Positions 11,643 to 59,369 of a DNA stretch of 64,000 bases are shown piece by piece. The DNA comes from Gaiellaceae bacterium. GTDB lineage: Bacteria > Actinomycetota > Thermoleophilia > Gaiellales > Gaiellaceae. The stretch lies in contig DASXWV010000101.1 of NCBI GenBank assembly GCA_036503495.1, forward strand, positions 2,023 to 66,022. The letters are read 5' to 3'. A program made the position numbers and the translations under genes. Within the stretch, counting starts at the first letter, position 1; each line of letters begins with the position of its first letter. The notes beneath the pieces were generated by a model, which worked only from the letters and a program-made list of their open reading frames with translations, had not been told where the DNA came from and did not search any database.

Positions 11643-13478
11643 ATGTCGAGATTCATGGAGCGCATTGCAGCGGGACGCCCGCTCGTCGGCGACGGCGGCA
11701 TGGGCGCACTGCTCGCGAGTGCCGTGCCACGCCTGCGCTGCCCCGAGGAGGCGAACCTGCGCGCGCCGGAGAGCGTCGTCGACGTCCACGTCGGCTACAT
11801 CCGCGCGGGCGCCGAGATCATCGAGACGAACACCTTCGGCGCGAACCGGCCGAAGCTCGCCCAGCACTTCCTCGAGGACGAGTTCGACGCGATCAACAAT
11901 TCCGCGGTGCGGCTCGCGCGCGAGGCGCGCGAGATCTGCGGCAGCGATGTCTTCATCGCCGGCTCGATCGGCCCGCTCGGCGAGCTGCGCGGGCCTGCAG
12001 CCGCGGCGCAGTACGCCGACCAGGCGAGGGTGCTCGAAGGGCGCGGCGTCGACCTGTTCATGGTCGAGACGTTCTACGACCTCGACGACCTCGAGACGGC
12101 GGTCAATGCCGTCCGCTCGGTCTCGCAGCTGCCGATCGTCGCGCTGATGACGTTCGACGGCGACGGCGAGACGCTCGCGGGCGTGACCGCGACCGACGCA
12201 GCTGCCCGCCTGCGCGCGCTCGACGTCGCGGCGTTCGGCGCGAATCACGGCGCCGGCCCGGCGGCCGCGCTGCGCGCGCTGACGGCGATGCAGCACGAAG
12301 GATCCCGTCTCGCGGCGCTGCCGAACGTGGGTCTCGCGAGCATGTCGGGGACGCGGATCGTCTTCCCGCACGCGACGCCCGCGTACTTCGGCGAGTTCGC
12401 CGCGCAGGCGCGCTCGCTCGGCGCCGCGATCATCGGCGGCTGCTGCGGGACGACGCCGGCGCAGATCGCCGCCATCCGCGCCGCGGTCGAGGAGGACGCG
12501 AAGCCGACCGGGTCGCTGCTCGTGCACGAGCGCCACTCGGCGACCGCCGTCGCCGCGGCCGAAGAGCCGACGCAGCTGCAGCAGCTGCTCGAGGCCGGCG
12601 AGTTCATCGTCTCCGTGCAGCTCGACCCGCCGCTCGGCGCGAACGCGAACGGGTTGATCGAGACGGCTCGCGCCGTGCGCAACTCCGGGAAGGCGCAGTT
12701 CGTCGACGTCAACGACAACCCGCGCGCGCGGGCGCGCATGAGCGGGATGATGGCGAGCGTCGCGATCGAGCGCTTCGCCGGCATCGAGACGATTCCGCAC
12801 CTGACGCCGCGCGACACGACGATCAGCGGTCTCGAGTCGCTGCTGCTCGGCGCGCATGCCGAAGGCGTCCGCAACATCCTCGCGGTGACGGGCGACCCGC
12901 CCGAGGCCGGGGACTACCCGGGGACGAGCGGCGTCTACGAGGTCGACTCGATCGGCCTCGTCGAGCTGATGACGAAGCTGAACCGCGGCGAGGACTGGCA
13001 CGGCCGCACGATCGACGCGCCCACGTCGTTCTTCCCGGGCGTCGCGGTCACGCCGACCGCCGACGACCTCGGCCTGGAAGCGGAGCGCTTCCACCGCAAG
13101 GTCGAGGCGGGCGCGCGCTTCGCGATGACGCAGGTGCTGTTCGATCTCGAGCCGTTCGAGGCGTTCCGGGAGCGGATCGGCGGCCGCTGGCCGATCCCGG
13201 TCCTCGTCGGTGTGTGGCCGATCCGCACGTACGAGCTGCTGATCCGGATGCACAACGAGGCGCCGGGGATCGTCGTCCCCGAGCACGTGCAGGAGCGCTA
13301 TCGCGCGGCCGGCGCCGAGGCGCGGCGCGTCGGCGGCGAGCTCGGGCTCGAGCTGCTCGCAGGGGCGCGCGAGCTCGCGCACGGCGCGTATGTGATCGCA
13401 CCGTTCCGCGCACCGCTGAACGTCGTCGAGTTCCTGCCTCAGCCGGCGGCGCATTCGCCCGTCGAGACCGGCCGCTGA
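11643..13478 (+). CDS. Bifunctional homocysteine S-methyltransferase / 5,10-methylenetetrahydrofolate reductase (YitJ-like)
   Basis: 611-aa protein from the ATG at 11643 (MSRFMERIAAG). The N-terminal S-methyltransferase domain carries 'ETNTFGAN' and 'GGCCGTTP'. The C-terminal MTHFR domain carries 'PHLTPRD' and 'ILAVTGDPP'. The first 88 codons of the track ORF are not coding-like. Confidence 0.9.
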   Translation: MSRFMERIAAGRPLVGDGGMGALLASAVPRLRCPEEANLRAPESVVDVHVGYIRAGAEIIETNTFGANRPKLAQHFLEDEFDAINNSAVRLAREAREICGSDVFIAGSIGPLGELRGPAAAAQYADQARVLEGRGVDLFMVETFYDLDDLETAVNAVRSVSQLPIVALMTFDGDGETLAGVTATDAAARLRALDVAAFGANHGAGPAAALRALTAMQHEGSRLAALPNVGLASMSGTRIVFPHATPAYFGEFAAQARSLGAAIIGGCCGTTPAQIAAIRAAVEEDAKPTGSLLVHERHSATAVAAAEEPTQLQQLLEAGEFIVSVQLDPPLGANANGLIETARAVRNSGKAQFVDVNDNPRARARMSGMMASVAIERFAGIETIPHLTPRDTTISGLESLLLGAHAEGVRNILAVTGDPPEAGDYPGTSGVYEVDSIGLVELMTKLNRGEDWHGRTIDAPTSFFPGVAVTPTADDLGLEAERFHRKVEAGARFAMTQVLFDLEPFEAFRERIGGRWPIPVLVGVWPIRTYELLIRMHNEAPGIVVPEHVQERYRAAGAEARRVGGELGLELLAGARELAHGAYVIAPFRAPLNVVEFLPQPAAHSPVETGR

Positions 13479-14590
13479 CCTGCCGACGAGAGGACGCCGG
13501 CGACGACGTCGCTCGGGATGCCGAAGCCGCCGCTGCCGCTGAGGCGCGCGGCGAAGACGGTCGCCTCGACCTTCCCCGCCTTGTCGATCGCCGGGCCGCC
13601 CGAGTTGCCGTGCTCGACCGTGCCGGCGATCGCGGTGATCTTGCGTGACACGGGGCCGCGCCCGTACGCGTCCTGCGTCAGCACCGTCGAGGTACGGCCG
13701 ACGCGGCCGGGCGTCGTCGTCAGCGGCCCGTTTTCCGGGTAGCCGACGATCCCGACCGCGGCGCCGTCGTTCGGCGCGGCGAGCTCGAGCGGATCGACGC
13801 GCACGTCCGGCACGCGGAGCACCGCGACGTCGTTGTGCGCGTCGAACGCGACGACCGACGCGGCATGCAAGCCGTCGACGTCGGGGATCTGCACGCGCGT
13901 GTCGTCCTCGCCCGCGACGACGTGCGCGGCGGTGACGACGAGGTGGTCGCGCGCGAACCAGCCGGTTCCCTCGATGCCGATCCCGCAGGCGGTGCCGACG
14001 ACGCGGACGACCGCCCGCGACGCGTCGCGGATCGTCGGGTCGCGGCCGACCGACGGGCTCGGCGGCAGGTTCGGTGCCGCCGGGCCTGCGATGGAGGGGA
14101 ACGGATCGATGCGCGCGAGCAGGTTGAGCGCGCGGCGCGGCGGCAGCGCTTCGTCGAGCCGGCGCACGAGCGTCGACCGTTGCACCTCCTGGCGGAGCCG
14201 CGTCTGGCCGGGGAGCAGCAGTGCGGTAGCGCCGAGCACCCAGACGAACGCGACGCCGGTGACGGCGCCGAAGAGGAAGCCGGCGGCCGAGTCGAGGAAG
14301 CGGAACGGCGTCAGGCGCAGTCCGCCGCGGACGAACGAGCCCGCGAAGACGGCGAGCGCCTGCAGGAACGTCGCGCCGAAGATCGCGCCGATGAGGCTCG
14401 CGACCGCGGCCCACTGCGACTTCGCGCCGCCGCGCAGCAGGTGTGGCGCGACCTTCGAGCCCGCATACGCGCCGGCGACGAGGCCGAGCAGGGCAAGGGC
14501 GCTCGCGATCAGCCCACGCCGCCAGCCGCCGAGCGCGGAGACGACGATGAGGGCGATCGCGATCCAGTCGACGACGGTCAGCGACGGCAC
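13439..14590 (-). CDS. CvpA-family membrane domain fused to an S1C trypsin-like serine protease (MarP-like)
   Basis: 383-aa ORF with 4 N-terminal TM helices. Protease triad motifs 'VVTAAHVV', 'HNDVAVLRV', 'HGNSGGPAID'. Converges on the previous gene with a 40-nt overlap. Confidence 0.85.
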   Translation of the reverse strand: MPSLTVVDWIAIALIVVSALGGWRRGLIASALALLGLVAGAYAGSKVAPHLLRGGAKSQWAAVASLIGAIFGATFLQALAVFAGSFVRGGLRLTPFRFLDSAAGFLFGAVTGVAFVWVLGATALLLPGQTRLRQEVQRSTLVRRLDEALPPRRALNLLARIDPFPSIAGPAAPNLPPSPSVGRDPTIRDASRAVVRVVGTACGIGIEGTGWFARDHLVVTAAHVVAGEDDTRVQIPDVDGLHAASVVAFDAHNDVAVLRVPDVRVDPLELAAPNDGAAVGIVGYPENGPLTTTPGRVGRTSTVLTQDAYGRGPVSRKITAIAGTVEHGNSGGPAIDKAGKVEATVFAARLSGSGGFGIPSDVVAGVLSSAGQRPVSTGECAAG

Positions 14591-14626: not shown

Positions 14627-14700
14627 GGGGGCGTAGTTCAGCTGGTTAGAACGCCGGCCTGTCACGCCGGAGGTCGCGGGTTCGAGTCCCGTCGCTCCCG
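14627..14700 (+). tRNA. tRNA-Asp (anticodon GUC)
   Basis: Cloverleaf folded by hand. Acceptor GGGGGCG/CGCTCCC has one G-U pair. D arm is GTTC..GAAC. Anticodon stem is CCGGC/GCCGG with loop CTGTCAC. T arm is GCGGG-TTCGAGT-CCCGT. Discriminator is G and no CCA is encoded. A TACAAT -10-like hexamer lies at 14610..14615. Confidence 0.95.
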
Positions 14701-28302: not shown

Positions 28303-29974
28303 GAACACCCTCGTTGCGCTCGCCCTCGGCGGCGGGCTGACGGTCATCTATTTCCTCGTTCCGCACGGCGCGGCGAAGAACAGCATCTACGGCGTCGTCG
28401 GCTTCGCCGCGGCGGTCGCGATCGCGTTGGGCGTCCGCGTCAACCGGCCGCCGCTCGCACTGCCGTGGCTCCTGTTCGCCGCGGGGAATCTCCTGTTCGC
28501 GATCGGCGACGACGTGGGCGCCGGCTTCTGGGGGGGCAGCCCGCCCGTCCCGTCGATCGCGGACGCGTTCTATCTGGCGGGCTATCCGCTCCTCGCCGCC
28601 GGGCTGCTCGTCCTGATGTTCTCGTCGGGCAGACACCGTCGCGGCGCCGCGCTCGCCGATGCCGCGATCGTCACGTTCGGCTTCCTGCTCGTGCAGTGGG
28701 TGTTCCTGCTCGACGGCATCCTCGCGAGCTCGGAGAAGACGTCGACGATCGCCGTCAACGCGGCGTACCCGTTGATGGACCTGATCCTGCTGGCGGGCCT
28801 CGCGGGCTTCTTCGTCACGGCGGCGTGGCGGACGCCGTCGTTCGTGATGCTGATGGCGAGCGTCGTGCTCCTGCTCGTGGCCGACGAGGTGTTTGCGCTG
28901 GGCGCGTACGAGCCCGGCGAATGGATCGACGGAGGCTGGGTGCTCTCGTACACGTAGTGGGTGGCCGCAGCGCTGCATCCGTCGATGCGCGAGCTGTCGC
29001 GCCCGGTTCGCCGCGCTGCGAGTCGGCTGCGCGTCGGCGCCGGCCGGGTCGTCGTGTTGACGGCCGCGCTGCTCGCGCCGCCGGCGGTGCTCCTCGTGCA
29101 GCACCTCCGCGCTGCGCCGCTGCACATTCCCGCGGTCGTCGCCGCGGCGTCGGTCATCTCGGTCCTCGTTGTGCTGCGGCTCGTCGGGATCCTGCGCGCG
29201 CTCGAGGGGATTCGGGTGCGCGAGCGCGCGGCGAGGGCGGACGCCGAGCAGGCGCAGCGGCTGCTCGCTGCGCAGAACGAGCGGCTCGTCGAAGCCGACC
29301 GGTTGAAGGACGAGTTCGTCGCGCTGATCTCGCACGACCTGCGAACTCCCCTCACCTCGATCATGGGTTATGTCGAGCTGGCGCTCGACGACCCGCTGCC
29401 GGACGAGACGCGTTCCTATCTCGAGGTCGTGTCGCGCAGCTCGAACCGTTTGCTCCGCCTCGTCGACGACCTTCTGTTCGTCGCGCGCCTGCAGTCGGGA
29501 CGGCTGGAGCTGACGCCGTCGCGGCTCGAGCTCAACGAGATCGCGCAGCAGTCCGCGGAGGAGGCGCGCGGGCGCGCTGACGCGAAGGACCTCGAGCTCG
29601 TCGTCAACGCGAACGGGCCGGTGCCGGTGGACGGCGATCGCGGGCGGATCTTCCAGCTGCTCGACAACCTGATCTCGAACGCGATCAAGTTCACGCCCGA
29701 CGGCGGCCGCGTCGAGATCAACGTCGCAGCCGAGGGCGTCGCGCGCCTCGAGGTGTGCGACACGGGCATCGGCTTCAGCGACCGCGAGGCGGCGCGTGTG
29801 TTCGAGCGCTTCTACCGCACCGATCGCGCCGTCGAGCGACAGGTTCCCGGCACGGGCCTCGGCCTGTTCATCGCGCATGCGATCACCGAGGCGCACGGCG
29901 GCCGCATCTCGGCGCATCCCCGGTCCGGCGGCGGCGCGCTCTTCCGGGTGGAGCTACCGTTGGCCGCCGAATGA
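28283..29974 (+). pseudogene. Multi-TM sensor histidine kinase interrupted by an in-frame TAG at 28955..28957
   Basis: Track ORFs 28229..28957 and 28961..29974 are in the same frame, separated only by 'tac acg TAG tgg gtg' (..WVLSYT*WVAAALHPSM..). The upstream part has 6 or more TM helices. The downstream part has 2 TM segments, HisKA 'SHDLRTPLTSI', and HATPase 'DTGIGF' and 'GTGLGLFIA'. Confidence 0.7.
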
Positions 29975-36615: not shown

Positions 36616-38031
36616 CTACGCAGGCGACGGCTCGGCCGCAAGTCGCTCTTGCGGCCGTGTCCGGAAGAGCGCTGCGCCGGCGAGCCCCCACACGCAATAG
36701 GCGACCCACGGGTCGCCGATCACGTCGGTCTGGACGGCGAGCGCGAGCACCGCCGCGAACGCCGCGCACATTCGCAGCGCGCGCGAGCGTGCGAGCCCGA
36801 CGAGCACCGCCAGCCCCCACGCGATCCAGAGCAGGGACCCGAGCACGCCAAGCTCGACGCCGAGCTCCGTGTAGTTCGACTCGCCGGCCTGGAGCGGCGT
36901 CTTCGTCCGCGACGCGACCTGCCCGACGTTGCCGAGACCGTAGCCCTGCGGGTGATCGGCCATCGTCCGCACACCGTCCTTCAGCGACTGCCAGTGCTCG
37001 TGCAGCGACGGCTCGTCCTCGCTGACCGCCGAGAACGAGCCTTGCGGCCCCTTCTCGGCCTGCCGGTGCTGGTAGCGGAGGTCGGCGCGCGTGAACTGCC
37101 CGGTCGGCGCGATGTGTGGGAACGCATGCGCCCACGCGACCGCGACGACGATCACAAGTGCGGCGCCGCCGAGCGCGAACGCGGACCGGCGGAGCAGCGC
37201 AAGCACGACGAGCCCGCCCGCGAGCGCGACGAGCGACGAGCGCGAGAACGTCCACAGCAATCCCGCGAAGACGACGACGGCGAGCGCGAGCGCTGCTCGC
37301 CCGCGCCGCACGCCGACGAGAAGCGCCACGACGAACAGGTAGCCGCTCGCCAGCGGCGAGAGGAACGTCGTCACGAGCCGCCGCAGGAACGGCCGGTCGC
37401 CGCCGACGTTGTAGATGAAGTTCTCCGGCAGGTTGCCGGTGCCGTGGTAGTCGTAGCCGAGGTGCTTCCGGAAGTAGTCGACGACCGCCGACTGGCGCCA
37501 CCACGAGATCGGGATCGCGTAGACGTCGATCAACCCCCACGCTGCGACCGCGGCGGCGACACCGAAGAGCGTCCACACGAGCGCACGCCATTCGCGCCGC
37601 GTGACGACGAGCGAGCGCCCCAGGAAGTAGGCCCCGACGGGCACGACGTCGTGGCGCAGCCCGAGCGCGACCGCGCGGTGGCCGGCTTGGCCCCCGAGTG
37701 CCGACTGCGGGATCAGCGCGTAGACGACGCAGAGCAGCGCGAACGCGACCGCGAGCCAGTCGGCGACGCGCCAGACGAACGGCGGCGTCCGCGTCCGCAC
37801 AGCGGTGCAGACCACCCGGGCGAGTGCGACCGCGAGCAGGATCTCCTTCCACGCCGCGATCGCGGTCAGCGTCGAGCCGCGAATCCCGGCGCCGTACAGC
37901 GCGGCGAGCACCGCGTTGTGCAGCGCCAGTCCGACGAGGAAGAGAAAGAGGGCGACCACCGGCCGCCGCCAGACGGCAACGGCGGCGACGGCCAAGAGCA
38001 GGGCGTACAGGGCCAGCTCGAGGGCCGTCAT
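36616..38031 (-). CDS. O-antigen ligase / polymerase (Wzy_C) family membrane protein
   Basis: 471-aa protein from the ATG at 38031 (MTALELALYALLL). Ten or more TM helices, 'TFSRSSLVAL' and a large loop typical of the O-antigen ligase family. Confidence 0.8.
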   Translation of the reverse strand: MTALELALYALLLAVAAVAVWRRPVVALFLFLVGLALHNAVLAALYGAGIRGSTLTAIAAWKEILLAVALARVVCTAVRTRTPPFVWRVADWLAVAFALLCVVYALIPQSALGGQAGHRAVALGLRHDVVPVGAYFLGRSLVVTRREWRALVWTLFGVAAAVAAWGLIDVYAIPISWWRQSAVVDYFRKHLGYDYHGTGNLPENFIYNVGGDRPFLRRLVTTFLSPLASGYLFVVALLVGVRRGRAALALAVVVFAGLLWTFSRSSLVALAGGLVVLALLRRSAFALGGAALVIVVAVAWAHAFPHIAPTGQFTRADLRYQHRQAEKGPQGSFSAVSEDEPSLHEHWQSLKDGVRTMADHPQGYGLGNVGQVASRTKTPLQAGESNYTELGVELGVLGSLLWIAWGLAVLVGLARSRALRMCAAFAAVLALAVQTDVIGDPWVAYCVWGLAGAALFRTRPQERLAAEPSPA

Positions 38032-38263: not shown

Positions 38264-38276
38264 CACTTGTCAAGTG
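38264..38276. promoter_or_regulatory. Palindrome CACTTG-T-CAAGTG, candidate operator
   Basis: Perfect 6+1+6 inverted repeat, 5 nt upstream of a TTGACG -35-like hexamer, between the sORF and the HTH-TPR gene. It shares the GTCAAGTG core with repeats at 58753..58773. Confidence 0.45.
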
Positions 38277-38280
38277 GGGA

Positions 38281-38318: not shown

Positions 38319-39644
38319 ATGAGTCCGGACGGAGCGCCCGCCGCAGGCGAGACGATCGGGCAGCGGCTCAAGCGCCTGCGGCTGGAGAGGGGTCTTTCTC
38401 AGCGCGAGCTCGCTGCACCCGGCGTCTCATATGCCTACATCTCCCGCATCGAGGCGGGAACTCGACAGCCGTCGGTGAAAGCGCTGCGCCGGCTCGCCGC
38501 CAAGCTCGGCGTCACCGCCGACTACCTGGAGACCGGCTCCGATCTCGACCCCGCGAACGAACGCGAGCTGAGGCGGAGCGACCTCGAGCTCGCCGAACGG
38601 CTCGGCGAGCCGGACGGCGCCGAGGCCGGCTTGACCGAGCTCGCCCAGGAGGCGCACGCCGCCGGCGATCGCCGGACACTGCTCCGCGCGAACGTCGCAC
38701 TCGCGGCGCTCGCCCAGGAGCGCGGCGAGTTCGAGCGTGCGGTGACGCTGCTCGAACGCGCCCTCGAGGGCGAGCCGTTCGACCCGTCGGGCCTGATCGA
38801 CGTCTACGCGCAGCTTGCGCGCGCCTACTCGGTCTCGGGACGTCCGCACGCCGCCGTCGATCTCTTCCAACGCTGCTTCGACGACGTCTCGGACGGCGAG
38901 GATCCCGCTCTCGAAGCTCGTTACGCGACGGCGCTCAGCTATGCGCTCAGCGATATCGGCGAGATCACACGCGCCGAGCAGGTGCTCCAGCGCGCGCTCC
39001 AGCGCGGGAGCGACATCGAAGATCCGTACATGCGCGTGCGCCTCTACTGGTCGATGGCGCGGCTCGCACATCACGAGGGTCGAAGCACCGCCGCCCTCGA
39101 CAACGTCCGCAAGGCGATTGCTCTTCTCCGCCTGACAGAGGACACCGTTCATCTCGCACGCGCGAACCTGCTCGCGGCCGCGATCTCGCTTTCGCGTGAA
39201 GACACCGACGCCGGCGCGACGTATCTCGACCAGGCGGAGCAGCTCCTCGGCCCATCGCCGTCGACCGAGGATCTCTTCGAGCTCCGCATCCGCCGGTCGA
39301 AGGTCGCGCTGCTGCGGGGCGAGCGCGACGACGCGATCCGTCTCGCGCGCGAGGCCGTCGACATCGCAGGCAGCTACAACCCGGTCGAAGAAGGACTGGC
39401 GTTCTCTGTCCTCGGCGATGCGCTCGCGCTCGCCGAGGAGACGCAGGGCGCCGACGAGGCCTATCGCCGCTCGGTCGGCCTCCTCGAGGGCGAGGGCCGG
39501 TGGCGCGACGCGTCGAACACCTGCCGCTCGTGGGCTCGTATGCTGCGGCAGGTGGGTCGCGAGCAGCAGGCGATGGATGTGCTCGACCGCGCAGCCGAGC
39601 TGGCGATGCGCGCGACGCCTGCGGACGCCCGCGTCGAGCGTTGA
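38319..39644 (+). CDS. XRE-type HTH + TPR-repeat transcriptional regulator (441 aa)
   Basis: N-terminal 'GQRLKRLRLERGLSQRELA....YAYISRIEAG.RQPS...LRRLAAKLGV', followed by about 350 aa of repeated helix-pair (TPR-like) units. Paralogous to 57312..58655. Confidence 0.85.
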   Translation: MSPDGAPAAGETIGQRLKRLRLERGLSQRELAAPGVSYAYISRIEAGTRQPSVKALRRLAAKLGVTADYLETGSDLDPANERELRRSDLELAERLGEPDGAEAGLTELAQEAHAAGDRRTLLRANVALAALAQERGEFERAVTLLERALEGEPFDPSGLIDVYAQLARAYSVSGRPHAAVDLFQRCFDDVSDGEDPALEARYATALSYALSDIGEITRAEQVLQRALQRGSDIEDPYMRVRLYWSMARLAHHEGRSTAALDNVRKAIALLRLTEDTVHLARANLLAAAISLSREDTDAGATYLDQAEQLLGPSPSTEDLFELRIRRSKVALLRGERDDAIRLAREAVDIAGSYNPVEEGLAFSVLGDALALAEETQGADEAYRRSVGLLEGEGRWRDASNTCRSWARMLRQVGREQQAMDVLDRAAELAMRATPADARVER

Positions 39645-57055: not shown

Positions 57056-57103
57056 GTCGAGCAGATGTCCGCGTTGGCCGCCCAGGAAACACCGGACGGC
57101 CCC

Positions 57104-57162
57104 CTAACCGCCGCGCGACTCCCGCGCGACGGTTAGTGGGACAGCGCCTAGCGCTGCCCCAC
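57104..57162 (-). terminator. Two adjacent hairpins 3' of the 36-aa sORF
   Basis: 57136..57162 has the stem 'gtgggacagcgc'/'gcgctgccccac' with one mismatch, abutting the stop codon. 57104..57136 has 'ctaaccg..cgcgcg'/'cgcgcg..cggttag'. Confidence 0.4.
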
Positions 57163-57272
57163 TAGATGATCCAACCGCCGTCGTTCGGCCCGAACGGCTT
57201 GAAGCAGAAGCCGAGATAGAAGGCCAGAAGTGCGGCGAACACGAGCAGGAAGATGAGCCGCGCTTTTGTCAT
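57162..57272 (-). CDS. 36-aa hydrophobic pro-peptide-like sORF (MTKARLIFLLVFAALLAFYLGFCFKPFGPNDGGWII)
   Basis: Not in the ORF track; translated by hand. The ATG is preceded by a strong Shine-Dalgarno 'GAGAGGAGGTG' at 8-nt spacing. It has a basic N-terminus, a hydrophobic core and a polar tail. It lies 37 nt downstream of, and on the same strand as, the HTH-TPR regulator gene. Confidence 0.5.
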   Translation of the reverse strand: MTKARLIFLLVFAALLAFYLGFCFKPFGPNDGGWII

Positions 57273-57311
57273 GTGTCGTCACCTCCTCTCAGCGTTTGAT
57301 CAATACCGGGA

Positions 57312-58655
57312 TTAGAAGCGGACGTCCTGGAGAGCCTCGGCCGCCGTGCGGTAGAGGTGTGCTGCAAGCCTGTCGTCGCCGCGCTTCGCGGCGAGGTCGC
57401 CGCGCGCGACCCACACGGCCGCGCGATGGCTGGCGGAGCCGAGCTGCTCGAACGTCGCCTCGGCGGCGACGAACGACTGCTCCGCTTCGTCGAGCATGCC
57501 CCGCTCGAGGTGCGCGCGCCCGAGCACCAGCTGGGCGTTGCCGACCTCGTCGAGGTAGTCCTCGTGGCCTTCGAGCAGCCGAAGCGCATGCTCGGCCTGC
57601 TCGGCGGCCTTCGCGGGATCCCCCGTGCGCAGGTTGATCGTCGCGAGCGACGAGACGGCCTGCGCGGCGTCCTGATCGAGCCCGTTGTCGAGCGCGATCG
57701 AGAACGCCTCCTTCAGCTGGGCGACTGCGTCCTCGGTCTTGCCGAGGAGGAAGTTGAGCGTGCCGAGGTTGTTCGTCAGCCGGCCGACGTGCACCCGGTC
57801 GGCGAGCTCCTCGTACGCGGCGCGGGCGCGCTCGGCGTACGTCCGCGCGAGCACCCAGTGCCCTTCGCGGTCGGCGACGAGCGACGCCTGGAAGAACGCG
57901 GCGCCGATCGTGCGGGGATCGTCGGCGTCTTCGGCGAGCTGCAGCGCGCGCTCGATGTCCTCGCGCGCGGCCTCGTAGTCGCGCATCCGGCGCCAGCAGC
58001 GCGAGCGCCAGGAGAGGATGCTCGAGCGGAGCGAGTCGGACGGCATCCCCGACCGCTCCGACAGCGCCAGGGCCTCATTGAGCAGGCCGAGTGCCGTCTG
58101 GATGCTGTTCAGCTGATAGCGGCAGACGCCGAGCGCGTAGAAGACTTCCGCGCGCTCGAGATCGGAGAACGAGCCGCCTTCGACGATGCCGCGGGCGTCG
58201 TTCAGGAGGTCGAGACCCTCACGGAGCCGGCCGAGGCGCATGCGCGTCTTGCCGGCGCCGACGAGCGCGCGCACGGCGAGCTCGGGGACGCCCATCGAGC
58301 GCGCCTGCGGGACGAGCGACTCGTACTCGACATCCGCCTCTTCGTTCCGCGCGGCCTCGAACAGCGCCTCCGCGCGTGCGAGCGCCCCTTCGAGGCGGCC
58401 CCGTTCGTCGGTCGCGACACCGTTGGCGAGGAAGCCCGCGTCGACGCCGAGGCGCGCCGCGAGCCACTCGATCGTCTCGCGCGTCGGGCGCGTCTTGCCG
58501 CGCTCGATCTGCGACACATATTCCTTGGAGAACCGCTCGCCCGCGAGCTCGCTCTGCGTCAGCCCGGCCGCGACACGAAGCTGGCGGAGGCGCTCGCCGA
58601 GGCGAAGACCCGTCTGGGCGGCGCTGCGGGTGCGAGTTGCGGCGTTCTCGTTCAT
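57312..58655 (-). CDS. XRE-type HTH + TPR-repeat transcriptional regulator (447 aa)
   Basis: ATG at 58655 (MNENAATRTRS). 'GERLRQLRVAAGLTQSELA.....EYVSQIERGKTRP....IEWLAARLGV' followed by TPR-like repeats. Paralogous to 38319..39644. Confidence 0.85.
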   Translation of the reverse strand: MNENAATRTRSAAQTGLRLGERLRQLRVAAGLTQSELAGERFSKEYVSQIERGKTRPTRETIEWLAARLGVDAGFLANGVATDERGRLEGALARAEALFEAARNEEADVEYESLVPQARSMGVPELAVRALVGAGKTRMRLGRLREGLDLLNDARGIVEGGSFSDLERAEVFYALGVCRYQLNSIQTALGLLNEALALSERSGMPSDSLRSSILSWRSRCWRRMRDYEAAREDIERALQLAEDADDPRTIGAAFFQASLVADREGHWVLARTYAERARAAYEELADRVHVGRLTNNLGTLNFLLGKTEDAVAQLKEAFSIALDNGLDQDAAQAVSSLATINLRTGDPAKAAEQAEHALRLLEGHEDYLDEVGNAQLVLGRAHLERGMLDEAEQSFVAAEATFEQLGSASHRAAVWVARGDLAAKRGDDRLAAHLYRTAAEALQDVRF

Positions 58656-58752
58656 GCGGCTTGGTTCACCAAAATGGAACTGCTCCTCTCCGGCATCCCC
58701 CGGGCGGGGCATGTTTGCCAGGGAAATCGGTGAACCGGAGCATAGAGCAAAT

Positions 58753-58773
58753 CACTTGACCGAGCTACTTGAC
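58753..58773. promoter_or_regulatory. Direct repeats CACTTGAC / TACTTGAC (GTCAAGT[G/A] on the minus strand), candidate regulator binding sites
   Basis: Two copies 14 nt apart, about 100 nt upstream of the HTH-TPR start. The second copy overlaps the -35 hexamer of the plus-strand promoter. They share the core with the palindrome at 38264..38276. Confidence 0.4.
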
Positions 58774-58797
58774 TGATCGGGACATGGCGCCTATAGT
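58769..58797 (+). promoter_or_regulatory. Near-consensus sigma70-type promoter (TTGACT, 17 nt spacer, TATAGT)
   Basis: -35 at 58769..58774, a spacer of exactly 17 nt, and -10 at 58792..58797. This is exceptional AT-rich consensus in a GC-rich background. Confidence 0.55.
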
Positions 58798-58803
58798 CAG
58801 GCC

Positions 58804-58975
58804 ACCTTGCAACCAGGCCGGACGCCAGGCTCGGGTTTGCAGGGGGCGCACCGGAATATCCGGTGACGGGCAGGAGGCGCGGCTGGGCCGCAGAGCCGAG
58901 CTTCCGAAGCCCGCACGGGATCGGAGCGCCCTTCGAAGAGGCCCCCGGAGCCGCAGCCGGGGGCCTCTTCGCTAT
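58804..58975 (+). ncRNA. Candidate structured RNA of about 170 nt (stand-alone sRNA or cis-regulatory leader of the YjbR-like gene), class unknown
   Basis: Bounded by the consensus promoter and a 15-bp terminator hairpin. Contains further stems (ccttgcaa/ttgcaggg, caccgg-aatat-ccggtg). The only ORF through it is Arg-rich shadow sequence. Confidence 0.4.
58934..58971 (+). terminator. Strong hairpin (cgaagaggcccccgg - agccgcag - ccgggggcctcttcg)
   Basis: 15-bp perfect stem with an 8-nt loop, followed by 'ctatctatgg' (a weak U-tract). It ends 15 nt before the YjbR-like ATG. Confidence 0.6.
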
Positions 58976-58985
58976 CTATGGCCGC

Positions 58986-59369
58986 ATGCCCGTGACGGTC
59001 GACGAGGTGCGGGAGTTCGCCGCGACCTTGCCGCGCGCGTACGAGGCGTTCGTGCGCGGCCGGATCAAGCTGCGGGTCGGCCAGATCGTCTTCGTCGCGT
59101 TCTCGAAGGACGGCACCGAGATGGGGCTGGGCTTCCCGAAGGAGTGGCGCGACGCCGCCGTCCAGTCCGAGCCGGCGACGTACTCGCTGCCGCGGGAGAG
59201 CGACCTACGGTTCAACTGGATCCAGGTCCGCCTCGCCGCGCTCGACCGCGCGCAGATGGAGGACCTCGTCGAGGACGCGTGGGCGCTCTGCGTCCCGAAG
59301 TTCCTGATCGAATCTAGGCGGCGAGCTGCTCGGCTGCGAGCTGCCGCTCGCGGCGACGGCTCGGCTTGA
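58986..59369 (+). CDS. MmcQ/YjbR-family protein
   Basis: 127 aa from the ATG at 58986 (MPVTVDEVREFAATLP). 'F.V..KIFV/A F' and 'W..V.L......E.L..LVEDAW..CVPK' fit the YjbR pattern. There is no Shine-Dalgarno. The C-terminus overlaps the convergent MFS gene. Confidence 0.65.
   Translation: MPVTVDEVREFAATLPRAYEAFVRGRIKLRVGQIVFVAFSKDGTEMGLGFPKEWRDAAVQSEPATYSLPRESDLRFNWIQVRLAALDRAQMEDLVEDAWALCVPKFLIESRRRAARLRAAARGDGSA

Follow-up and report, generated by a model that had tools for sequence, protein, structure and literature searches.

Peptide signaling through cytoplasmic tetratricopeptide repeat (TPR) receptors is regarded as a trait of Firmicutes, and actinobacterial signaling has been thought to be based on small molecules (PMC10075063). 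In the PlcR-PapR and NprR-NprX systems, a receptor composed of an N-terminal XRE-type helix-turn-helix (HTH) and a TPR superhelix is encoded immediately upstream of its peptide gene, and the two genes are co-directional and co-transcribed. We have analyzed a stretch of 64,000 nucleotides (nt) from a Gaiellaceae bacterium (GenBank assembly GCA_036503495.1, contig DASXWV010000101.1, positions 2,023 to 66,022 of the forward strand), in which two genes for HTH-TPR regulators, termed receptors below, each neighbor a small open reading frame (sORF). The window means this whole stretch, the G+C content of which is 70.7%. Both the domain composition and the gene order just described recur at the second of the two sites, locus 2, which is the main subject here and comprises the following features.

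58655 to 57312, minus strand: receptor 2, an XRE-type HTH plus ~10-TPR regulator of 447 residues, from the ATG at 58655 to the stop codon at 57312 (Pfam, AlphaFold2).
57311 to 57273, minus strand: spacer of 39 nt from the receptor 2 stop codon to the sORF 2 start.
57290 to 57280, minus strand: ribosome site GAGAGGAGGTG within the spacer, 7 nt before the ATG.
57272 to 57162, minus strand: sORF 2, 36 residues, MTKARLIFLLVFAALLAFYLGFCFKPFGPNDGGWII, supported by conservation at orthologous loci.
57076 to 57164, minus strand: three GC-rich hairpins past the sORF 2 stop codon (RNAfold, -74.7 kcal/mol, z = -6.65).
58754 to 58773, plus strand: two direct ACTTGAC repeats, ACTTGAC-N6-ACTTGAC, 13 nt apart, which read GTCAAGT on the receptor strand.
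58769 to 58797, plus strand: sigma-70-type promoter TTGACT-17 nt-TATAGT, directed away from the receptor (10 of 12 matches; 0.1 such sites expected by chance).
58802 to 58975, plus strand: structured small RNA (sRNA) of ~172 nt, head to head with receptor 2 and conserved at the nucleotide level.

An original prediction, made from the letters of the DNA, had described the product of 58655 to 57312 as a 447-residue XRE-HTH plus TPR protein, and this was confirmed by Pfam and AlphaFold2. HTH_31 (E = 4.9e-13) and HTH_3 (E = 1.5e-9) both matched residues 18 to 74, and strong, canonical repeat matches were obtained to TPR_12 (E = 1.8e-21) and TPR_2. The AlphaFold2 model (mean pLDDT 89.9) is all-helical, with an N-terminal HTH followed by ~20 paired helices that make up ~10 TPRs, and it contains no membrane segment; as modeled, receptor 2 is a cytoplasmic regulator. 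More than 6,500 homologues were found, including one identical protein from a Gaiellaceae metagenome-assembled genome (MAG; Thermoleophilia, Actinomycetota). With 605 clusters at 50% identity (E <= 1e-30), the specific receptor family is of modest size, and its full-length members split into families 1 and 2, each of which has a representative in the window. Assignment to a known NCBIfam family was rejected, as the matches to HaaT, AfsR, NsdA, and RamB all fell far under the cut-off. One homologue, P0431, carries the automatic JGI name 'quorum sensing regulator NprR', which we do not regard as evidence.

The predicted 36-residue sORF at 57272 to 57162 and the UbiB-like gene beyond it were both found, the latter encoding an ABC1/UbiB kinase (Pfam, E = 4.8e-62) downstream of the hairpins. 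Some details had to be amended. TTGATCAA does occur in the spacer, but the spacer is 39 rather than 37 nt long; GAGAGGAGGTG is in place, with a gap of 7 rather than 8 nt to the ATG; and RNAfold gives three hairpins after the sORF instead of two. TTGATCAA was discarded as a conserved spacer element, as orthologous spacers, 12 to 43 nt in length, do not contain it. Because the 39-nt spacer is too short to hold a promoter of its own, receptor 2 and sORF 2 appear to be co-transcribed, and locus 2 would thus be a two-gene operon of an XRE-HTH/TPR transcription factor and a 36-residue pre-peptide. According to the folding prediction, the hairpins at 57076 to 57164 probably form the end of this transcript; a consensus terminator scan misses all three because they have no U-tract. 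When the window was scanned strictly for a strong ribosome site, a basic N-terminus, and a hydrophobic core, only sORF 2 was returned. A candidate third sORF at 28847 to 28945 on the plus strand, matched weakly by sORF 2 in tblastn (E = 0.29, ...GEWIDGGWVLSYT), is embedded in a longer frame for a membrane protein and was dismissed as a chance match.

Conservation of the pair was then assessed at 80 loci from Gaiellaceae/Thermoleophilia MAGs, obtained by a receptor-2 scan with one genome per species and spanning 62 to 91% receptor identity. An intact sORF of 30 to 51 residues, starting 12 to 43 nt past the receptor stop codon, is present at 77 of them, and GGAGGTGA precedes the ATG, GTG, or TTG start by 4 to 10 nt at nearly all orthologous loci. 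The three loci without an intact pair have a truncated sORF (L016), a degenerate sORF (L060), and a receptor that is itself cut (L089). The sORF 2 product of the window consists of a basic N-terminus (MTKAR), a hydrophobic core of ~16 to 18 residues, a linker, and the tail ...G-P-N-D-G-G-W-I-I. Across family 2, the start and core follow M-T-K-A-R-L-I-Y-L-L-L-I-A-S-L-F-A-Y-x-L-A, with K conserved in 60, R in 66, and Y in 37 of 71 aligned peptides, and the median uncharged run of the core is 18 residues (with a core median of 17 to 18 uncharged residues for the pre-peptides). The linker varies in length and composition, and the tail, G-[MFL]-[SN]-D-G-G-[GYW]-[FWL], remains in frame despite linker insertions and deletions; Gly occupies position -3 in 63 of the 64 peptides that have D-G. 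The N-terminal charge in the peptide families is +2, the hydrophobic core spans ~15 to 18 residues, and the side after the core is negative. A lipoprotein was considered and rejected, since a Cys after the core L-A occurs in 17 of 71 family-2 peptides, about a quarter, and is not a defining feature.

The substitution pattern is that of a translated gene. Entropy at the three codon positions of the sORF 2 family is 1.22, 0.69, and 1.38, the second position being least variable, and pN/pS is 0.62 in the sORF frame versus 0.83 and 1.62 in the shifted frames. On 13 independent metagenome contigs, gene calling has returned the exact 36-residue product, and a profile search yielded 199 related proteins of 32 to 79 residues, nearly all shorter than 55 and without a Pfam domain. 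They are named 'hypothetical', except for three automatic JGI labels, 'heme O synthase-like', which we read as a hydrophobicity artefact. Searches of Pfam and NCBIfam with the sORF 2 peptide family gave no match. Given a tail that keeps its frame through indels, a second codon position with the lowest variability, and shifted frames free of such constraint, sORF 2 is a genuine conserved coding gene, and it is tied to receptor 2. UbiB, by comparison, follows the sORF at only 36 of 81 loci, and a convergent short-chain dehydrogenase/reductase (SDR) gene directly follows the sORF elsewhere. A functional link to UbiB was rejected because the sORF is retained where UbiB is absent. In a reciprocal look from the contigs of divergent sORFs, an HTH-TPR gene was again found immediately upstream. 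Thus, the sORF travels with the receptor, as it is kept without UbiB and leads back to an HTH-TPR gene when the search begins from the sORF side.

The second pair of the window, at locus 1, belongs to a paralogous family and comprises the following features.

38319 to 39644, plus strand: receptor 1, an XRE-HTH plus TPR protein of 441 residues (Pfam HTH_3, HTH_31, TPR_MalT, TPR_12).
38188 to 38090, minus strand: sORF 1, 32 residues, GTG start, VSRHSFYIRLVLLVAVLALASVLLGSEPWGPI, divergent from receptor 1 and 130 nt away.
38265 to 38277: palindrome CACTTGTCAAGTG in the 130-nt divergent region, containing ACTTGAC.
36616 to 38031, minus strand: gene for a Wzy_C (O-antigen ligase-like) membrane protein, starting ~58 nt past sORF 1 on the same strand.

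Receptors 1 and 2 share 27% identity over 281 residues (tblastn E = 2e-10), and the paralogy that had been proposed for them therefore holds by alignment. Scanning metagenomes with receptor 1 yielded 80 loci (48 to 78% identity), and a divergent sORF was found at 68 of the 74 that have enough upstream DNA, the window counted. All related loci come from Gaiellaceae, Thermoleophilia, or Actinomycetota MAGs. The claim of a duplicated receptor-plus-sORF family rather than a chance sORF was upheld: there are two paralogous receptor-plus-sORF families, each conserved across many species. The original prediction had also likened locus 2 to plcR-papR, in which the peptide gene follows the receptor co-directionally. 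The gene order of locus 2 does match plcR-papR; locus 1 is divergent, like rgg-shp. The tail motif P[W/F]GP, said to be shared, did not hold up. PWGP belongs to family 1 only, the PFGP of the window's sORF 2 is lineage specific, and the motif of family 2 is G-x-[SN]-D-G-G.

Family-1 sORFs encode 28 to 32 residues behind an AAGGAGG-type ribosome site and always end in P-W-G-P plus zero or one residue. Their peptides carry a charge of +2 on the N-side and a negative C-side, and their small residues are patterned as in a (-3,-1) site. From the last N-terminal basic residue to the tail Gly there are exactly 15 residues in 62 of 71 peptides. A core of this length would span a membrane only with difficulty and would fit a (-3,-1) signal-peptidase site. 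The order of an sORF 1-type frame and Wzy_C is kept at 46 of 80 related loci, so the two may be co-transcribed; a glyoxalase-like gene occurs at others, and the sORF persists where Wzy_C is replaced by another gene. Ten family-1 loci (L093, L094, L105, L112, L113, L114, L121, L127, L128, and L161) have tandem double copies of the sORF, in which the tails are identical or nearly so and the N-terminal halves have diverged. Among nine of these pairs (all but L093), differences fell from 24 of 63 positions in the N-region to 20 of 72 in the first half of the core, 9 of 63 in its second half, and 1 of 72 in the last eight residues (Fisher's test for the N-terminal versus the C-terminal half, p = 2e-7). 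Tail positions -7, -6, and -1 show 2.3 to 3.3 bits of variation between loci, versus 1 difference in 27 within tandem pairs. This gradient, together with the matching within pairs, indicated that the tail is the constrained, locus-specific part of the family-1 peptide.

Upstream of receptor 2, the GTCAAGT motif had been put forward as shared between the two loci. It is conserved in 79 of 79 family-2 upstream regions tested, 72 of which have GTCAAGTGAT, and it recurs in family 1 and in a third clade; at locus 2, however, it overlaps the -35 element of the divergent sRNA promoter, which is contained in the proximal ACTTGAC copy. The repeats are a candidate operator of receptor 2. The promoter at 58769 to 58797 is the sole promoter-like site between 56950 and 59050 and is conserved in orthologues. 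In family 1, upstream regions contain TGTCAAG in 31 and TTGACG in 50 of 53 cases, and the ACTTGAC of the locus 1 palindrome yields a -35-like TTGACA on the sORF strand. The third HTH-TPR clade (L173, 2625 to 3001; L175, 2744 to 3001) has ~34% identity to receptor 2, lies between sortase and MarR genes, and is preceded by GTCAAG-N8-GTCAAGTGA or AGTCAAGTTGACG. Owing to this recurrence, it is plausible that the GTCAAG-type motif serves as a recognition site of the regulator family; its -35 role is equally visible, and the two roles are inseparable here. In the receptor 5' region of family 2, ~20 to 110 nt upstream of the start (L042 and L017, for example), we also observed a conserved hairpin, CATGCCCC-loop-GGGGGATG, and an 18-bp palindrome, GTGAAG-N6-CTTCAC, of which the window (58660 to 58730) and its closest relative, L011, have kept only one half.

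The sRNA is a constant companion of family 2. An nhmmer profile gave exactly one match at each of the 80 family-2 loci, at L171 and L172, and in the window (58802 to 58970), and none at family-1 loci. Since the sRNA occurs once at every family-2 locus, family 2 is a triad in which sRNA and receptor diverge and the sORF follows the receptor. Among 74 sequences, RNAalifold found four helices with 49 pairs, 27 of which show compensatory changes. The 3' end is a GC-rich terminator hairpin (58936 to 58971), and two hairpin loops carry GCCGCAG; pairing of these loops with the receptor/sORF mRNA was considered and rejected, as no conserved CUGCGG site was found. No known Rfam identity could be assigned, as there was no Rfam 15 match, and only noise appeared at E <= 10 over 58600 to 59150. 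A 168-residue ORF at 58863 to 59369 on the plus strand overlaps the sRNA with its first ~40 codons. The YjbR-like gene within it (Pfam YjbR, residues 55 to 142) probably starts at the ATG at 58986, and the tblastn 'conservation' of this ORF at other loci is that of the translated sRNA region.

We favor, at a rough probability of 0.43, the reading that receptor 2 and sORF 2 are a receptor-propeptide pair that works like the RRNPP systems (PlcR-PapR, NprR-NprX, Rgg-SHP, and AimR-AimP), possibly with the sRNA as output. We infer such quorum sensing from the architecture and the conservation pattern. The pre-peptide would insert N-in/C-out, and its C-terminal ~7 to 15 residues (...G-x-[SN]-D-G-G-x-x) would be cut off by signal peptidase or an intramembrane protease and set free outside the cell. 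Once free, the peptide would accumulate, be taken up again, and bind the concave face of the TPR superhelix, which would alter HTH occupancy of the ACTTGAC repeats. The altered occupancy would set how strongly the divergent sRNA and the receptor-sORF operon itself are transcribed, and as an output the sRNA would resemble aimX of arbitrium; its position next to the pair recalls the aimR-aimP-aimX arrangement. The features that favor this reading are the two-family architecture with private tails, a constraint that rises toward the tail, variable tail positions that match within a locus, and the short core with its charge asymmetry. Paralogues with 27% identity keep different tails, D-G-G versus PWGP, which fits receptor-specific ligands. 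The gene orders are those of plcR-papR at locus 2 and rgg-shp at locus 1, and the closest structural matches of receptor 2, LGN/Pins, are TPR superhelices with extended peptides in the groove.

Several observations pull the other way. Receptor 2 matched no RNPP/Rgg-type Pfam family at E <= 0.01, and a PDB sequence search returned the HTH domains of XRE, DdrO, ComR, and PlcR. The matches to PlcR (E = 7.6e-4, residues 18 to 71 only) and ComR (E = 1.4e-4, weak) are confined to the HTH, and Rap proteins came up at E of ~0.4 to 0.8. In Foldseek, LGN/Pins and designed consensus TPRs took the top ranks (E of ~2e-9, TMt 0.70 to 0.75), and such generic TPR proteins rank far above RapJ-PhrC at 41 and PlcR-PapR7-DNA at 44 (3u3w, E = 4.6e-7, TMt 0.65), although both of these are significant. 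The N-terminal and hydrophobic parts of the peptide (MTKARLIY...) are conserved beyond the needs of an export signal, and the core of the tail persists at family-level divergence, whereas pherotypes turn over rapidly in many RRNPP systems. With their stable synteny, the loci give the impression of vertical inheritance and not of mobility. The 30 window ORFs scanned included no oligopeptide permease (Opp-type), no exporter, and no protease for processing, and neither an sORF nor an sRNA was found adjoining the receptor of the third clade (L173 and L175).

The main rival reading is a membrane-resident miniprotein, one that tethers or modulates the HTH-TPR regulator, or that is its co-expressed effector with a short outside tail that senses or touches something in the envelope, with no diffusible signal. 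Tethering has parallels, since Prli42 tethers the stressosome and membrane partners sequester Mlc and MalT. The 18-residue uncharged run of family 2 is enough for a thin membrane span; the conserved cytoplasmic K, R, and Y would suit contact with the TPRs; the loci belong to the core genome, keep their synteny, and are inherited vertically; the tail core is kept over wide divergence; the window ORFs scanned include no linked transporter or protease; and the divergent sORF of locus 1 has the classic regulator-target layout. The tandem copies, however, are least constrained at the N-terminus and most at the tail, which argues against a specific contact through the N-terminus, and the family-1 core, fixed at 15 residues, is short for a bilayer. 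An outside tail of 6 to 8 residues would be very small for a sensor, and a pure effector role leaves unexplained why each paralogue has a private peptide family. We regard the miniprotein as a real possibility that nevertheless falls well short of probable.

The remaining alternatives fared much worse against the same data. Chance was effectively refuted: stop codons are rare at 70.7% G+C, so that short open frames are common, and several overlapping ORFs do occur at the sORF 2 site, but the frame, the GGAGGTGA start site, and the N-terminal and tail motifs are kept at 77 of 80 loci with indels that preserve the frame, conservation peaks at the second codon position, pN/pS is lowest in the sORF frame, and the paralogous family 1 behaves alike. 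If the sORF encoded a leader or arrest peptide acting in cis, as SecM, MifM, and TnaC do, ribosomes stalled at the C-terminal Pro/Gly/Trp/Asp motif would regulate the next gene via the hairpins. The motifs do adjoin the stop codon (PWGP-stop, PWGP-x-stop, and D-G-G-x-x-stop), strong hairpins lie past sORF 2, and a same-strand gene usually follows the family-1 sORF (Wzy_C or, at other loci, the glyoxalase-like gene). Yet about half of the family-2 loci lack a same-strand gene after the sORF, the convergent SDR gene being next, and the downstream gene varies between loci in both families rather than being constant. Moreover, a product of 28 to 37 residues is wholly inside the ribosome tunnel at the stop codon, given the known tunnel length, so that release of a stall by insertion force is impossible, and tail positions that vary between loci yet agree within one would serve no purpose in a stalling motif. 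We rejected this idea, which we hold to be very improbable, because the downstream genes vary and because of the peptide length. Just as hard to credit is a membrane toxin of the small, hydrophobic kind (Hok, TisB, Fst), with the XRE-HTH protein as its repressor or antitoxin-like controller. Size and hydrophobicity agree with such toxins, and XRE-HTH domains are common in antitoxins (HipB-, MqsA-, and spr1629-type NCBIfam matches were weak and all far under the cut-off), but a very strong, conserved ribosome site and co-transcription imply constitutive translation, the loci are chromosomal, core, and syntenic and neither mobile nor patchy, the Gly/Pro/Asp tail and the tandem duplications are atypical of pore-forming toxins, and a 447-residue TPR regulator is atypical as an antitoxin.

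Taken together, a signaling function of the receptor-sORF pairs is plausible but unproven; it is suggested by their architecture and conservation pattern. The linked sRNA may be the system's output and is a separate addition to the receptor-sORF finding. A bolder version of the receptor-propeptide reading, that these are the first RRNPP-type systems outside Firmicutes, with a cytoplasmic TPR receptor and a peptide that is secreted and re-imported, made up of two ancient, vertically inherited families of Thermoleophilia with the new codes x-[ED]-P-W-G-P-x and G-x-[SN]-D-G-G-x-x and with the family-2 sRNA as a direct, arbitrium-like output in the core genome, is doubtful. If the pairs do signal, a conserved receptor-peptide module in Gaiellales would extend the mechanism to another phylum. 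In abundance, the Gaiellales rank with the foremost Actinobacteria of soil, and they are among those least often cultured. As short, defined peptides, the putative ligands can be synthesized and are directly testable. Even if the peptide is membrane resident, two families of unannotated miniproteins are defined, each an obligate partner of a transcription factor, and a new structured sRNA is linked to receptor 2 at every locus examined; the sRNA and the miniproteins offer handles on regulation where genetics is nearly absent.

Elsewhere in the window, a tRNA gene at 14627 to 14700 on the plus strand (71.5 bits) is the sole match to Rfam 15 at the gathering score. An ORF at 13439 to 14590 on the minus strand joins a match to the Colicin V production (CvpA) membrane domain with one to a trypsin-like peptidase domain, and in this architecture it resembles the mycobacterial MarP protease.

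How far, then, do the loci resemble described systems? The signature used by RRNPP_detector consists of five criteria, and the survey made with it covered Firmicutes and viruses only (PMC10075063). Four of them are found here, namely a small peptide, a receptor of 250 to 500 residues, TPRs, and direct neighborhood of the genes; the fifth is a Sec export signal, to which the N-terminal charge, the uncharged core, the negative C-side, and the family-1 (-3,-1) pattern described above relate. In terms of the RRNPP group itself, the TPR receptors of 447 and 441 residues lie within the 250- to 500-residue range, both begin with an HTH as do PlcR, NprR, Rgg, PrgX, and AimR, and a gene for a peptide of 10 to 100 residues is adjacent at 77 of 80 family-2 and 68 of 74 family-1 loci. 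Nothing beyond the generic HTH and TPR folds is shared with the known receptors, however, so common descent was not apparent, and the described range of the group, Firmicutes and mobile elements, does not include the Actinomycetota MAGs studied here. A literature search found no paper linking RRNPP-type systems to Actinobacteria or Gaiella. Membership in RRNPP by homology is not supported.

Among actinobacterial systems, the WhiJ/BldB-type and XRE plus DUF397 pairs of Streptomyces also combine an XRE-HTH regulator with a small adjacent partner and occur in paralogous copies. Their partner is a soluble DUF397 protein of ~60 to 80 residues, however, the C-terminal domain of their regulator is not a TPR, and the Pfam and NCBIfam scans gave no match to the WhiJ/BldB or DUF397 families. 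The miniproteins of Prli42-stressosome and MgrB-PhoQ are likewise single helices of ~30 to 45 residues with a short, charged cytoplasmic N-terminus, encoded in the core genome and missed by annotation. Unlike the peptides described here, they are not obligate neighbors of an HTH-TPR regulator and have no conserved motif at the extreme C-terminus; the N-terminus being least constrained in our tandem copies is a further contrast.

Rgg-SHP and ComR-ComS also use short hydrophobic peptides (~20 to 35 residues) without a classical cleavage region, and the peptide genes are often divergent from the regulator, as at locus 1. The active part of SHP and ComS is the C-terminal 7 to 9 residues with a conserved acidic residue, to which the tails found here can be likened, though their chemistry is Gly/Pro/Trp/Asp rather than aliphatic or Trp-Trp. 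The ComR HTH matches receptor 2 weakly, and Rgg/ComR proteins, with degenerate repeats and ~280 to 300 residues, are unlike the canonical-TPR receptors of 447 and 441 residues. The streptococcal peptides are known to be exported by PptAB, processed by Eep, and imported by Opp/Ami; no counterpart was found among the 30 window ORFs.

In comparison with PlcR and NprR, receptor 2 is close in size and repeat number, having ~10 TPRs in 447 residues versus 9 TPRs in ~420 residues of NprR. PapR/NprX-type pre-peptides have a basic, hydrophobic N-terminus and carry their important part at the extreme C-terminus, and the peptides here are alike. The host lineage is different (Actinomycetota, Thermoleophilia, versus Firmicutes), there is no sequence homology to PlcR outside the HTH, and the canonical TPRs of receptor 2 are nearer to LGN/Pins than to PlcR. 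The sORF 2 peptide is shorter (36 versus 43 to 48 residues in the PlcR/NprR systems), with a longer hydrophobic core, and its tail core is conserved over the whole species family, in contrast to the pherotype splitting of the PlcR/NprR systems; any function of the tail here is putative. The arbitrium system is carried on Bacillus phages, not on a chromosomal, vertically inherited locus, and its RNA gene lies downstream of the peptide gene rather than divergent from the receptor. Transcription of the arbitrium RNA (AimX) is reportedly the output of its receptor, a finding ascribed to Erez et al. 2017, whereas control of the sRNA by receptor 2 is suggested solely by their common promoter region. 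Nevertheless, AimR-AimP-AimX and locus 2 present the same triad: an HTH-TPR receptor, a peptide gene, and an adjacent non-coding RNA gene.

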